The notes under the pieces were generated by a model. That model was not told the origin of the DNA, ran no database searches, and saw only the letters and a program-made list of their open reading frames with translations. 30,932 nt of DNA from a virus (Duplodnaviria > Heunggongvirae > Uroviricota > Caudoviricetes), in IMG/VR virus record IMGVR_UViG_2541047956_000008, positions 1-30,932 of that record, one strand, 5' to 3'. Shown here one piece after another: positions 12,723 to 17,421 of the stretch; within the stretch, counting starts at the first letter, position 1; each line of letters begins with the position of its first letter. The position numbers were made by a program, and so were the translations under genes.

Positions 12723-12990
12723 CCCGACAGCAACTATAAATGCGCTGTTATGTGCTTGTGTTGTTATTACTCTGATGTTTTATCGTCGTGGTGATTCGCG
12801 GCATCGTCCTTGGGTTTCACGTTTAGCCTGGCTGATTACTGTTACATACAGTGCTGTTCCGTTGGCCTATCTCTGTGGGATTTATCCCCATTCCTCATGG
12901 CCCATTATCGTGGCGAACACTATTTTTCTTTCCGTGCTGGTGGCCGTCAGAGGCAACGTTGCACGTCTGGTTGATCATCTGAGGCACTAA
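12709..12990 (+). CDS. Second lysis-cassette membrane protein (holin or antiholin candidate)
   Basis: 93-aa ORF with hydrophobic segments ([47 protein letters not shown]); overlaps both neighbours. Confidence 0.4.
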
Positions 12991-13604
12991 TGAACCAACA
13001 ATTATTTCAAAAGGCGGCTGGTATTAGCGCCGGGCTGGCTGCGCGCTGGTTTCCGCACATTGATGCGGCGATGAAGGAATTCGGCATTACAGCACCAGCG
13101 GATCAGGCGATGTTTATCGCTCAGGTAGGCCATGAGTCGATGGGGTTTCGCGCCTTAGTTGAAAATTTTAACTACACACCATCTGCGCTGGTGGCGACGT
13201 TCGGAAAGAGGATCACACAGCAGCAGGCTGATGCCCTTGGCAGAACATCCGGACATGCAGCTCGTCAGGATGCTATTGCCAATCTGGTGTATAGCAACCG
13301 GCTGGGTAACAAAGCACCCGGTGATGGCTGGAAATATCGCGGTAGAGGATTAATTCAAATCACTGGCCTCCATAATTATCGCATCTGTGGCGCGGCGCTG
13401 AAGTTAGATCTGGTGACTTCACCTGAACAACTGGAGCAGGAGCTACAGGCCGCGCGCTCAGCTGCATGGTTCTACACATCTAAAGGCTGCATGGTCTACG
13501 GTGCCGATATTACTCGTGTTACGCGCATCATTAACGGCGGTCTGAACGGTATTGAGGATCGTAAGATTCGATACAACAAGGCGCGGGCGGCGCTGCTGGT
13601 ATGA
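12990..13604 (+). CDS. Endolysin, glycoside hydrolase family 19-like
   Basis: 204-aa ORF; motifs [12 protein letters not shown] and GRGLIQITG resemble GH19 catalytic-region signatures; between the holin-like genes and Rz. Confidence 0.7.
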
Positions 13605-14062
13605 AGATGAGTTATTGGGCGCTCATTTTAACGTTTATTGCTTGTATTGCTGGTGGTCTTGTCTGGTCAGCGAATCATTACCACAATAAAGCCATTGAAT
13701 ACAAAAAACAGCGCGACGAAAACGCTATGGCATTAGATTCGGCTATGGCGACTATCTCTGATATGCAGAAGCGTCAACGTGACGTAGCAGAACTTGACGC
13801 CAGATACACAAAGGAGCTTGCTGATGCTAACGCGACTATCGAAAGTCTCCGTGCTGATGTTTCTTCTGGGCGTAAGCGCCTGCAAGTCGCCGCCACCTGT
13901 GCAAAATCAACGACCAGAGCCAGCGGCATGGGCGATGGAGAAAGCCCAGGACTTACAGCAGATGCTGAACTCAATTATTACCGTCTCCGAAGTGGAATCG
14001 ACAGGATAACCGCACAGGTTAACTACCTGCAGGAGTACATCAGGACGCAATGCCTTCGATGA
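13601..14062 (+). CDS. Rz-like i-spanin
   Basis: 153-aa ORF with N-terminal TM helix ([18 protein letters not shown]), coiled-coil periplasmic part, and an embedded +1-frame lipoprotein ORF. Confidence 0.7.
13824..14009 (+). CDS. Rz1-like o-spanin (outer-membrane lipoprotein) embedded in Rz
   Basis: ATG 13824 with AAGGAG RBS (13811-13816); signal peptide and lipobox-like LLGVSAC, then a Pro-rich mature region ([13 protein letters not shown]), entirely inside Rz in another frame. Confidence 0.65.
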   Translation: MLTRLSKVSVLMFLLGVSACKSPPPVQNQRPEPAAWAMEKAQDLQQMLNSIITVSEVESTG

Positions 14063-14329
14063 TAGCGATAATTTTACTCATCATCCTTCACATCAGGCCC
14101 TGTAGACAGAGTGGTGATTACTTCTGGAGTGGATTCAGATTAAACATCTCATTGCTAATGTTTGAGGTTAAGCATCTGGCGCGCGGTAAGTGGTTGCGTT
14201 GAAATAAGAGCCAGTCCATTACAAATTTCATCAAGCGTTATTGGTAAGGGTGATAATTATGAGATACCTCTTCACTAAGAGTAATCTTAAGGGTAATGTG
14301 TAACCTCACTTTTTAATACGGAGGTTGTA

Positions 14330-14554
14330 ATGTTAGAGAATTATTTCCCTTCAGGAATAGGTGCTCAGCCTGTAACTCAAGCTCAAAAACAGAGGGTTAT
14401 AGCTGTTCAAGCTGCCCTTGAATTAGTTAAGGCCTCACTTTCTTCTGCAGGTGGTCAGGCTACAAGTGCAAAATTTGAACAGGAATTAAAAGCAGCTATT
14501 GGCTTAATTGAACCATTAGCCGATGCCATTCAGAAAGCAATCAGCAAAGAATAA
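14330..14554 (+). CDS. Hypothetical small protein (74 aa) in an AT-rich moron between lysis and packaging genes
   Basis: ATG 14330 preceded by GGAGG; Ala/Gln/Lys-rich helical-looking protein; flanks AT-rich; terminator follows. Confidence 0.45.
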   Translation: MLENYFPSGIGAQPVTQAQKQRVIAVQAALELVKASLSSAGGQATSAKFEQELKAAIGLIEPLADAIQKAISKE

Positions 14555-14660
14555 ATAAACCACCTGCATTTTGTTTTATTTCCCAACTAACGGGTGTAAT
14601 AATCTTAATGTTTCCCGTGGATAGATAAGACAATAAGTATTCACCTTCAAGATATAAACG

Positions 14661-14686
14661 AGCCTCGCTAATGCGAGGCTTTTTTA
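14661..14686 (+). terminator. Rho-independent terminator after the moron
   Basis: Perfect hairpin AGCCTCGC-TAAT-GCGAGGCT followed by TTTTT. Confidence 0.65.
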
Positions 14687-14720
14687 CGCATTGTAAGCGT
14701 GCACCAAAGAGGGGATATAA

Positions 14721-15071
14721 ATGCCACCACGAACCCCAAAAGCCTGCCGTTTTCGCGGTTGCCGCAATACCACGACTGATCCGTCAGGCTATTGCGAAAG
14801 CCACAAAAGCGAGGGCTGGAAGCAATACAAGCCAGGACAATCCCGTCATCAGCGCGGTTATGGTTCGAAGTGGGACAGTATCCGCGCGGGTGTCCTGAAG
14901 CGTGACAAAGGCCTGTGTCAGTTATGTCTGCGTGCTGGTGTGGTGCGTGAGGCGAAAACCGTTGACCACATCATCCCTAAAGCGCATGGCGGCACTGATG
15001 CCGACTGTAATCTGCAGAGTCTGTGCTGGCCGTGTCATAAGGCGAAGACGGCCCGTGAACGACTTAAGTGA
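14721..15071 (+). CDS. HNH endonuclease (packaging-associated)
   Basis: 116-aa ORF with Cys-rich N-terminus and DHIIPKAHGGTDADCNLQSLCWPCHKAKT (H-N-H motif); directly upstream of the small terminase as in HK97-type packaging modules. Confidence 0.8.
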   Translation: MPPRTPKACRFRGCRNTTTDPSGYCESHKSEGWKQYKPGQSRHQRGYGSKWDSIRAGVLKRDKGLCQLCLRAGVVREAKTVDHIIPKAHGGTDADCNLQSLCWPCHKAKTARERLK

Positions 15072-15157: not shown

Positions 15158-15196
15158 ATACCCGCGAAAAATGAAATTTAACCAGGAGTGCCGCAT

Positions 15197-15691
15197 ATGG
15201 CTGGAACGGCGGGGCGTTCCGGGCGTCGCCCCAAGCCAACGGCGCGCAAGGCGCTGGCCGGAAACCCCGGCAAGCGAGCCCTGAATAAAGATGAACCCGT
15301 TTTTACGCCCATCAAAGGTGTTGAGCCACCGGAGTGGTTCGCTGAAGAAGAGCTCCCTCTCGCCACGATCATGTGGCAACTGACAACCAAAGAACTCTGT
15401 GGTCAGGGCCTGCTGTGCGTGACTGACCTCGCAGTGCTTGAGCGGTGGTGCGTAGCCTATGAGTTCTGGCGACGTGCTGTGAAAAATATTGCCAGACAGG
15501 GCAACACCATCACCGGTGCAATGGGCGGCATGGTCAAAAATCCGGAGCTGACCGCCAAAAAAGAACAGGAGTCCGAGATGAGCAGTACGGGGGCAATGCT
15601 CGGACTCGACCCCAGCAGCCGCCAGCGTCTGATTGGCCTGGCGGGGCAGAAGAAAGCCACTAACCCGTTTCTGAAAATTATCGAATCATGA
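15197..15691 (+). CDS. Terminase small subunit
   Basis: ATG 15197 preceded by AGGAG (8-nt spacer); basic N-terminus ([13 protein letters not shown]); 4-bp overlap with the large terminase gene. Confidence 0.7.
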
Positions 15692-17421
15692 GCCGGAAAT
15701 CTTACCCCAACGTAAATGCAGCAAATCAGTATGCCCGGGATGTCGTGCGCGGAAAGATTGTTGCCTGCCAGTTTGTGATTCAGGCCTGCCAGCGCCATCT
15801 TGATGACCTGATGGCGGAAAAAAGTAAGTCGTTTCGTTACCGCTTCGACAAGGACCTGGCTGAACGGGCCGCCAAATTTATTCAGCTGTTGCCGCACACC
15901 AAGGGTGAGTGGGCATTTAAACGGATGCCCATCACGCTGGAGCCGTGGCAGCTATTTGTGATCTGCTGTGCGTTTGGCTGGGTCAATAAAGGCACCCGGT
16001 TGCGCCGCTTCCGGGAGGTGTATACCGAAATTCCCCGTAAGAACGGCAAATCGGCAATCTCTGCCGGTGTTGCCCTGTATTGTTTTGCCTGTGATAACGA
16101 GTTCGGCGCGGAAGTGTATTCCGGTGCCACGACGGAGAAACAGGCATGGGAAGTCTTTCGTCCGGCACGACTGATGTGTAAACGCACACCCATGCTGACG
16201 GAAGCGTTCGGGATTGAGGTTAACGCCTCAAACATGAACCGTCCGGAGGATGGTGCGCGGTTTGAACCGCTGATCGGTAACCCCGGTGATGGTTCATCAC
16301 CCCACTGTGCCGTGGTGGATGAATATCACGAGCACGCCACAGATGCGCTTTACACCACGATGCTTACCGGGATGGGGGCGCGACGCCAGCCACTGATGTG
16401 GGCCATTACCACCGCCGGGTACAACATTGAGGGGCCGTGCTACGACAAACGGCGGGAAGTCATCGAGATGCTCAACGGCTCGGTGCCCAACGATGAACTG
16501 TTCGGGATCATCTATACCGTTGACGAAGGCGACGACTGGACCGACCCGCAGGTACTTGAAAAAGCTAACCCGAATATCGGTGTGTCGGTTTATCGCGAGT
16601 TTTTGTTAAGCCAGCAGCAACGTGCGAAAAATAACGCCCGTCTGGCAAACGTCTTTAAAACAAAACACCTCAATATCTGGGTGTCGGCGCGTTCGGCGTA
16701 TTTCAACCTGGTGAGCTGGCAGAGCTGCGAGGATAAATCACTGACTCTTGAGCAGTTCGAGGGGCAGCCGTGCATTCTGGCCTTTGACCTGGCGCGTAAG
16801 CTGGATATGAACAGCATGGCGCGACTTTATACCCGCGAGATTGACGGTAAAACGCATTACTACAGTGTGGCCCCGCGTTTCTGGGTACCGTATGACACGG
16901 TGTATAGCGTCGAGAAAAATGAAGATCGCCGGACAGCCGAACGCTTTCAGAAATGGGTGGAAATGGGCGTCCTGACCGTTACCGATGGTGCAGAGGTGGA
17001 TTATCGCTACATCCTCGAAGAGGCCAAAGCGGCGAACAAAATCAGCCCGGTCAGCGAGTCACCCATCGACCCCTTCGGGGCGACCGGGTTGTCACATGAC
17101 CTTGCTGATGAAGACCTGAACCCCGTCACCATCATTCAGAACTACACCAACATGTCCGACCCGATGAAAGAGCTGGAAGCGGCAATTGAATCGGGGCGCT
17201 TTCATCATGATGGCAATCCCATCATGACCTGGTGTATCGGCAACGTGGTCGGAAAAACCATTCCGGGTAACGATGATGTGGTGAAACCCGTCAAAGAGCA
17301 GGCGGAAAACAAAATCGATGGTGCAGTTGCGCTGATTATGGCGGTTGGCAGAGCCATGCTGTACGAGAAAGAAGACACGCTGTCTGACCACATTGAGTCC
17401 TACGGGATCCGCTCGCTTTAA
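15688..17421 (+). CDS. Terminase large subunit
   Basis: 577-aa ORF coupled to the small subunit gene and followed by portal; size and position typical of TerL. Confidence 0.85.

Follow-up and report, generated by a model that had tools for sequence, protein, structure and literature searches.

A composite accessory-gene slot between the spanin and HNH genes of a lambdoid Escherichia coli prophage and the small-protein family of its cargo

With regard to the late regions of temperate phages, the locus described here raises the question whether a short AT-rich block between lysis and packaging genes constitutes a cargo unit under its own control or is a regular part of the late operon. The window, i.e., the whole stretch of 30,932 nucleotides (nt) that was analysed (IMG/VR record IMGVR_UViG_2541047956_000008), covers the late genes of an Escherichia coli prophage that is lambdoid and of the HK97 type, and the interval in question, positions 14063 to 14700, lies between the gene for the spanin Rz and a gene for an HNH endonuclease. 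A first-pass annotation made from the sequence letters had described this interval as an AT-rich moron that carries a gene for a protein of 74 amino acids (aa) with a strong ribosome-binding site (RBS) and its own terminator, preceded by a possible leader peptide and a hairpin covering the RBS, and all of these features were found where it had placed them. The difference in base composition is clear, the GC content of the interval being 0.392 and thus lower than in Rz (0.486), in the HNH gene (0.561) and in the window as a whole (0.509). The reading that we prefer, and to which we assign roughly two chances in three, is that of a composite moron slot consisting of an open reading frame (ORF) similar to gene 65 of phage Sf6 together with the Rz end, a decayed joint that belongs to an intercistronic hairpin type termed HP1, and a single-gene cassette comprising a leader of about 70 nt, the 74-aa gene and a terminator.

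The distribution of the three parts among 5426 complete E. coli genomes is informative in this respect. The Rz end with the adjoining small ORF is present in 2898 of them and the module formed by the HNH gene and the gene for the small terminase subunit (TerS) in 1125, while the cassette (approximately 14217-14715, tested as 14200-14720) occurs in 38. It is always complete there, with at least 95% identity in all 38 genomes and at least 99% in 38 of 39 records. Homology to other HNH modules resumes at about 14716-14721 and breaks at the HNH start codon, 5' of which the sequence differs in every prophage compared. The content of the slot varies among prophages that share this packaging module: MB10 has no insert, with 26 nt between lysC and the HNH gene; E. 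coli O157:H7 AC-3 carries iss/bor, read from the opposite strand; in IHE3034, gene 65 precedes rha; and PMV-1 contains AT-rich cargo of another kind. The latter cargo encodes a protein of likewise 74 aa, which was considered as a homolog of the window protein and rejected as unrelated. Judged from these alignments, the cassette is found as an insertion or an absence relative to common flanks, and the interval is a lambdoid accessory (moron) slot between spanin genes and the HNH/terminase module. The proposal of a cargo insertion thus gains support from the variability of the slot, its distinct base composition, a real ORF and the terminator behind the gene. Phage lambda carries bor at the same place, and the moron concept is said to go back to Juhala, Hendrix and colleagues, who framed it for HK97 and HK022. 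This slot is the best known of its kind in lambdoid phages, and the cassette, as it stands, is an ordinary example.

The interval begins with a segment that is distinct from the 74-aa cassette. Over the first 164 bases (14063-14226), the interval shares a nucleotide identity of about 90% with the region behind Rz in HK620, Sf6, CUS-3 and epsilon34, and its first quarter is filled by a 50-aa ORF that the first-pass annotation had overlooked. On the basis of this similarity, the ORF is assigned to a mosaic segment at the Rz end, separate from the cassette. Its product, with an isoelectric point (pI) of 10.9, matched no model in Pfam, NCBIfam and PADLOC scans and may be a small membrane protein tied to the lysis module.

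The homology that the window shares with P22-like phages stops at the second part, the remnant of HP1, and mosaic joints coincide with HP1 in general. In its canonical form, HP1 is found in many loci just past the stop codon of the upstream gene and reads CATTA-CA, 7 bp, TTCACTGAG, 7 bp, GA-TAATG, with conserved flanks and loop (CATTACAG ... TTCACTGAG ... GATAATG); examples are L004:5903-5939 (loci are designated by L numbers) and two copies in Sf6 (L001, 2655-2690 and 3319-3358). Across 34 distinct copies, 94.3% of the cells in the stem are paired as compared to 32-52% in slid controls, eight of the 12 pairs show changes in both partners, and none of 500 shuffles attained the covariation score, which is 0.54. 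One exact subtype alone is present in at least 120 viral contigs (L178-L297). HP1 is confined to the lysis-to-packaging interval and strictly polar: of 114 loci, 80 have lysis genes on its upstream side and 71 have packaging genes on its downstream side, and the reverse arrangement never occurs. The cargo behind it falls into 47 unrelated clusters, HNH and TerS genes included, and the gap to the next start codon often amounts to 15-35 nt. We tentatively read HP1 as an intercistronic element of the late mRNA that would double as a recombination joint. Two other assignments were rejected, namely a sigma-70 promoter (TTACAG ... GATAAT), for which the spacer of 22-23 nt does not fit, and an intrinsic terminator, since no U-tract follows HP1 in those relatives of the 74-aa gene that have a sigma-32 promoter. 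The element is contained neither in Rfam nor in the epsilon34 genome paper, neither copy is annotated in the Sf6 record, and nothing relevant was found in the literature on boundary sequences. The copy in the window is not canonical, as 27 nt instead of about 22 separate CATTACAA from GATAAT and the inner stem is missing; it reaches -3.8 kcal/mol without the canonical fold, compared to -18.7 kcal/mol for a canonical copy.

The 74-aa ORF, the third part's only gene, turned out to be real. All of its residues (1-74) align with positions 1-70 of the 70 positions of the PHROG 5901 profile (E = 8.1e-29), a GGAGG Shine-Dalgarno (SD) sequence lies 5 nt ahead of its ATG in accordance with the strong RBS noted before, and homologs form 529 clusters at 90% identity, or 137 representatives at 50%. 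In comparison with an 89%-identical relative (L103), the ratio of nonsynonymous to synonymous change (dN/dS) is 0.15 at a proportion of synonymous differences (pS) of 0.40. These comparisons identify it as a genuine gene under purifying selection. All homologs are stand-alone proteins of 60-80 aa named 'hypothetical', they share the motifs M-L-x-x-Y, R-L-x-A-V-Q-A-A-L-E and L-A-D-A-I-Q-x-A as invariant features, and all of them stem from Enterobacterales, the few records under other names looking mislabelled. Such Enterobacterales-like loci appear under the titles Pseudomonas lundensis (L019), Vagococcus (L031), Chryseobacterium (L068) and Martelella alba (L053), and these records are probably mislabelled or contaminated.

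Structure prediction and profile searches, both proposed at the outset as checks, led to a helical hairpin and to no informative match in sequence or fold. AlphaFold (AF2, with an alignment of 85 sequences) predicts an ordered N-terminal arm and antiparallel helices at residues 17-38 and 46-73, with a confidence (pLDDT) of 83.6, for a protein that appears soluble and near-neutral (pI 6.2, grand average of hydropathy 0.07). No Pfam, NCBIfam or PADLOC model matched it, a sequence-profile search of the PDB gave nothing below E = 0.06, Foldseek comparison of the model with PDB and BFVD returned only generic helical hairpins (all E > 0.9), and literature searches with the family's protein accessions and PHROG identifier retrieved nothing relevant. 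Neither an enzymatic nor a membrane role is indicated. One might guess, with low confidence, that this helical hairpin resides in the cytoplasm and acts by binding to another protein during stress or infection; the sole basis of this guess is the link of the family to sigma-32 and its accessory-gene neighbourhood, both described below.

Within prophages, the family gene is always located on the late strand, just 3' of spanin genes and 5' of packaging genes, and it keeps this position across unrelated packaging modules (HNH with P27 TerS, Terminase_2 with Terminase_6N, Terminase_4, DUF2280). In a set of 101 non-redundant loci, the upstream neighbours are i-spanins (27 and 12 loci), o-spanins and endolysins, the downstream neighbours HNH (11 loci) and TerS genes (10 and 8 loci). 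An obligate partner gene sought among the neighbours in these loci was not found; spanins, endolysins, HNH and TerS are the only ones that recur. Chromosomal copies outside of prophages exist as well, in Serratia, Kluyvera, Scandinavium and others (among L014-L093), where they adjoin rhaM or genes for a GFO/IDH/MocA oxidoreductase, a carbonic anhydrase or GGDEF proteins.

Two further observations concern the neighbourhood of the family gene. In five of the 101 loci it is directly preceded by a gene for 78-85 aa that matches the Pfam family Acb2_Tad1_hairpin (e.g., L009/L010:4648-4884, with the same cluster upstream in L103, L151 and others). This family comprises anti-CBASS/anti-Thoeris sponges, and the slot thus also hosts candidate anti-defence cargo. 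For the 74-aa and 50-aa proteins of the interval, no match to defence or anti-defence systems was obtained with PADLOC or Pfam, and the Acb2_Tad1_hairpin neighbour in some relatives is the sole link of this kind. In Pantoea prophages (L007:5210-6000, L008:2953-3743), a divergent gene for an XRE-type helix-turn-helix protein lies upstream of the family gene, and the candidate -35 element is flanked by the two halves of an 8-bp perfect inverted repeat, GATTAATT ... AATTAATC; judging by its placement, this repeat may be an operator.

Predicted terminators are a regular attribute of the family. They follow the gene in 84 of 100 loci, at a median distance of 17 nt past the stop codon, as compared to 233 of 1396 background windows (17%). 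L103 and L104 keep such a terminator, AAGCCGCCTTCGGGCGGTTTTTTT, directly past the stop, while the window copy has lost the 3' arm of this element and instead uses a different predicted terminator 105 nt downstream. With a 9-bp stem, a T6 run and -20.6 kcal/mol in a context of 50 nt, the latter bears out the claim that the gene has its own terminator; a simple terminator scan gave this stem on the minus strand only. Terminators upstream of the gene are rare (2/20 and 2/28), so that late-operon transcription could run on into the cassette, and insulation provides no argument for autonomy.

Such an argument is provided by promoters that precede many relatives. Sites were scored against the sigma-32 consensus CTTGAAA, 12-16 nt, CCCCATNT, and a score of at least 12/14 was found in 22.8% of the 101 loci in comparison with 0.14% of 8455 background windows; at a threshold of 11/14 the number rises to 28 of the 101 loci (28%). 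The -10 element is always placed 38-48 nt from the ATG of the family gene. Near-consensus promoters of the form CTTGAAA, 13 nt, CCCCATTT are seen, e.g., in L117 (2888-2954), L033, L044, L003 (Serratia phage OS31) and L009, and leaders of this class have a short co-varying 5' hairpin after the promoter and leave the SD sequence free. In an independent sample anchored on HP1, a sigma-32 site was present in three of 91 downstream regions, and the two convincing ones precede members of the family. Since such sites are rare behind HP1 except at family members, the promoter belongs to the gene and not to the slot, and the terminators in 84% together with the sigma-32 promoters in 28% of the family indicate a typically autonomous unit. 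A literature search on sigma-32 together with morons did not reveal any described phage moron family with sigma-32 promoters. Induction of lambda is known to activate the sigma-32 regulon by way of CIII and FtsH (PMC2147009), and a sigma-32 promoter in front of a family gene would accordingly be expected to fire upon induction or infection in addition to heat shock. In the window, positions 14000-14720 do not contain a sigma-32 site, the best match being misplaced and reaching 10/14; autonomy of this particular cassette is supposed by analogy with relatives that carry such promoters.

At this point, the view has to be considered that the 74-aa gene is purely a gene of the late operon, devoid of a promoter of its own, so that the protein, e.g., an accessory factor of lysis or packaging, is made only lytically from the transcript antiterminated by Q. 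Orientation on the late-operon strand, the constant position between spanin and terminase genes, the rarity of upstream terminators and the lack of a significant promoter in the window all agree with it, and some cargo starts only 15-30 nt behind HP1, which implies that such genes must be read from upstream. On the other hand, prophages with the same HNH/terminase module have an empty slot or unrelated cargo, from which it follows that the 74-aa gene is dispensable for the lytic cycle, and neither the family's own terminators and sigma-32 promoters nor its chromosomal copies outside of prophages are expected for a gene of this kind. We regard an exclusively late function as unlikely and maintain the composite slot with a single-gene cassette as the preferred interpretation.

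How the window copy could be expressed from this cassette depends on its leader, which belongs to a class represented by 20 or more distinct loci that are distantly related to each other. The class sequence reads CTT(C/T)A(C/T)T, 17 nt, TAAT(G/C)T, G-T-A-A-C-C-T-C-C, 9-13 nt, A-A-A-G-G-A-G-G. Invariant columns in 20 aligned leaders are CTT, T-A---T located 17-18 nt downstream, GGA of the SD sequence and the start codon with the single base before and after it. A weak sigma-70-type promoter, here TTCACT, 17 nt, TAATGT, followed by a closed RBS would be expected to give such a pattern. Between the window and L103, 14% of the leader sites differ compared to 39.5% of the synonymous sites in the gene, and the leader is therefore constrained. 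Independent expression of the 74-aa gene in the lysogen, as first proposed, would be plausible, although no promoter in the window exceeds chance.

The promoter-like block lies within the 14-codon mini-ORF that had been suggested to encode a leader peptide. According to this idea, a ribosome that finishes the mini-ORF at its TAA (14301-14303) would open the hairpin and free the RBS of the 74-aa gene by coupling or attenuation. The mini-ORF does exist as described, its stop codon sits in the 5' arm of the hairpin, AAGGG at 8 nt ahead of its ATG may allow its translation in the window, and upstream ORFs (uORFs) in the same frame are present in L103 and L165. A sigma-70-like site at 14199-14227 would moreover place it on a transcript. 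The peptide itself is not conserved. A uORF starting with ATG in this frame is restricted to the window, L101, L103 and L165, whereas at least seven related leaders (L007, L013, L030, L106, L107, L114 and L164) lack an in-frame start codon even though the nucleotides are conserved. Lengths (7-17 aa) and stop positions of the uORFs vary and are uncoupled from the hairpin in most loci, the ATG in L103 derives from the TAATG arm of HP1, and the conserved bases fit promoter positions. By this comparison, the conservation is one of nucleotides coinciding with the promoter-like block and not of the ORF, and a leader-peptide mechanism is not a property of the family; we rank it as the least probable of the explanations considered. 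The site mentioned (TTGAAA, 17 nt, CAAATT) has the highest sigma-70-like score in the interval, 11.0, which is within the range of chance maxima; it reaches from the stop codon of the 50-aa ORF into the beginning of the HP1 remnant, and its counterpart in Sf6 is without the T of the -10 element.

The hairpin between anti-SD and SD sequence has a different standing. In the 20 leaders, 89% of the cells in this helix are paired in comparison with 36-52% in slid controls, two of the pairs change on both sides (e.g., from AACCTCC/GGAGGTT to AATCTCC/GGAGATT), and the covariation score was reached by one of 500 shuffles. The predicted accessibility of the SD sequence has a median of 0.01 in the class of the window and of 0.59 in the sigma-32 class (p = 1e-7). 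The earlier suggestion that a hairpin covers the RBS is consequently corroborated by conservation within this leader class and not by folding energy. The same gene is thus found with two regulatory designs, a sigma-32 promoter with an open RBS and a closed RBS without a sigma-32 promoter.

This constellation could be taken to mean that the hairpin is an RNA thermometer, which melts when the cell becomes hot and provides by translation the heat induction that relatives obtain from sigma-32. The occluded SD sequence in the class of the window as opposed to the open one in the sigma-32 class, the connection of the family with heat shock, and a short stem with G.U pairs and a loop of 13 nt are compatible with such a device. 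Its predicted behaviour is not: accessibility of the SD sequence stays flat between 30 and 42 °C, with a class median rising from 0.01 to 0.02 and a value of 0.01 for the window at 42 °C. Furthermore, the C-rich CCUCC anti-SD forms G-C pairs, unlike the situation in fourU and ROSE elements. Rfam yielded no matches at gathering score in the window, and in six relatives, screened at E <= 1, neither the leader nor HP1 was matched. A thermometer is very improbable, and the hairpin of the cassette is preferably read as one that would keep translation low.

In the reading as a composite slot with a single-gene cassette, the 74-aa gene would be transcribed whenever late transcription antiterminated by Q runs from the lysis to the packaging genes, and low-level transcription in the lysogen from the weak conserved promoter would also be probable. 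The terminator would stop only transcripts that are not antiterminated, ahead of the packaging genes, and the SD hairpin would keep translation low. The leader class of the window copy may in this way have exchanged the heat-shock promoter of the family for a weak promoter in combination with a closed RBS.

Several points speak against this interpretation. The proposed promoter has a position weight matrix (PWM) score of 8.1, close to the chance median of 7.7, a strict promoter scan of the window gave 0 sites, and even the best PWM match (11.0) is in the chance range. The hairpin in the window amounts to -6.6 kcal/mol at 37 °C (z = -1.06), a stability reached by 15% of shuffled sequences, and the comparative support for the helix consists mostly of conservation with little compensatory change. 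The 38 E. coli copies are nearly identical, so that the distribution of the cassette may reflect one recent spread. There are signs of decay, i.e., an HP1 copy that cannot fold and the loss of the proximal terminator, and generic helical hairpins as the only outcome of fold searches give no direct pointer to the function of the protein.

Part of these points can be turned into an explanation of its own, in which the cassette is a decaying hitch-hiker that has lost promoter, boundary hairpin and terminator and persists as a silent remnant in this prophage lineage. Besides the degenerate HP1 copy and the destroyed terminator, the absence of a sigma-32 and of a significant sigma-70 promoter in the window, the occluded SD sequence and the restriction to 38 genomes with near-identical copies fit this picture. 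Intactness of the ORF and a dN/dS of 0.15 at a synonymous divergence as high as that from L103 do not, nor does a leader that changes less than synonymous sites; the recurrence of the same leader class in distantly related loci points to a maintained design, and a strong replacement terminator is in place. Decay to silence is accordingly quite improbable, and the cassette is preferably viewed as a maintained single-gene unit.

Taking the family as a whole, one may tentatively go further and propose, as a possible though doubtful generalization, that it represents a new sigma-32-coupled group of small proteins of Enterobacterales chromosomes and temperate phages that act on host proteostasis or in phage-phage conflict when the heat-shock response fires, i.e., upon prophage induction or superinfection. 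The cassettes of the slot would then be exchanged at HP1, which would also punctuate the late mRNA, and the window copy would be a closed-RBS variant that replaces transcriptional heat control. About a quarter of the family of 529 clusters appears to be driven by a textbook heat-shock promoter, an unusual wiring for a phage accessory gene, and heat or sigma-32 induction offers a direct handle on these proteins. HP1, in turn, could explain the swapping of cargo at this hotspot or the processing of late mRNA.

The features of the window discussed here are compiled in Table 1 together with the flanking lysis and packaging genes. Outside of the window, Rfam matches in related prophages comprise an int-alpA RNA that lies some 150 nt behind the family gene, isrJ, and STnc100, which is placed ahead of the holin gene in the stretch from the antiterminator to the lysis genes; the coordinates recorded for int-alpA, STnc100 and isrJ are L117:3363-3427, L009:3093-3263 and L117:772-851, respectively.

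Table 1. Coordinates of the features in and around the interval between Rz and the HNH gene.
Feature	Position	Strand	Basis and remarks
GH19 endolysin	12990-13604		Pfam
Rz i-spanin gene, left neighbour and end of the lysis cassette	13601-14062	+	Pfam Phage_lysis, E = 9e-38
Rz1-like ORF inside Rz, lipobox-like LLGVSAC	13794-14009		Candidate, from sequence reading
50-aa ORF, basic and hydrophobic, overlapping the stop codon of Rz; homolog of Sf6 gene 65	14050-14202	+	PHROG 11822, E = 5e-28
Degenerate HP1 copy, CATTACAA...GATAAT	14217-14258	+	Left recombination joint of the cassette
14-codon mini-ORF (MRYLFTKSNLKGNV)	14259-14303	+	Not conserved as coding sequence
Candidate weak sigma-70-type promoter, TTCACT (14271-14276), 17 nt, TAATGT (14294-14299)	14271-14299	+	Inside the mini-ORF; conserved in the leader class
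Anti-SD/SD hairpin covering GGAGG (14320-14324)	14300-14328	+	8-pair helix; arms AACCTC (14302-14307) and GAGGTT (14321-14326) plus two G.U pairs
74-aa gene, small helical-hairpin family PHROG 5901	14330-14554	+	Full-length profile match
Remnant of the stop-proximal terminator of the family, 3' arm lost	14555-14582	+	Alignment with L103/L104
Intrinsic terminator near the right end of the cassette	14660-14686	+	9-bp stem 14660-14681, T6 run 14680-14685
HNH endonuclease gene, right neighbour and first gene of the packaging module	14721-15071	+	Pfam HNH, E = 5e-15
P27-family small terminase	15188-15691		Name from RefSeq annotation of an identical prophage
Large terminase	15688-17421		Name from RefSeq annotation of an identical prophage

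When compared with known systems, the cassette of the window most directly invites comparison with bor/iss of lambda. Both occupy the slot between Rz/Rz1 and the packaging genes, are AT-rich relative to their flanks, are present or absent among homologous prophages and are followed by a terminator. They differ in that bor/iss is read from the opposite strand and encodes a lipoprotein with a known phenotype, serum resistance, whereas the window gene has the orientation of the late operon, a predicted soluble helical-hairpin product and a promoter that is a candidate only. For the 50-aa ORF, the counterpart is gene 65 of Sf6, which has the same length, the same overlap with the Rz stop and a nucleotide identity of about 90%, without any notable difference. 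HP1 resembles intercistronic stem-loops of the repetitive extragenic palindromic (REP) type in its intergenic location just past stop codons and in its co-varying stem. Mosaic joints coincide with HP1, and a 'bsq7; boundary sequence' is annotated in the Sf6 record within gene 63, the Rz homolog. In contrast to such elements, HP1 has conserved flanks and a conserved loop, is strictly strand-specific and is restricted to the lysis-to-packaging interval. With regard to the leader, hairpins that sequester the SD sequence are the closest parallel, as a CCUC(C) anti-SD located 9-13 nt upstream pairs with GGAGG in the class of the window; ROSE and fourU thermometers differ from it, given the lack of predicted melting between 30 and 42 °C, the G-C-rich pairing and the lack of an Rfam match in the window leader. 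The sigma-32 promoters of the family, finally, have the same geometry as the dnaK P1 promoter (PMC10216364): in 28% of the family, CTTGAAA and CCCCATnT stand 13 nt apart and keep a constant distance to the ATG, a site that the window copy does not carry.

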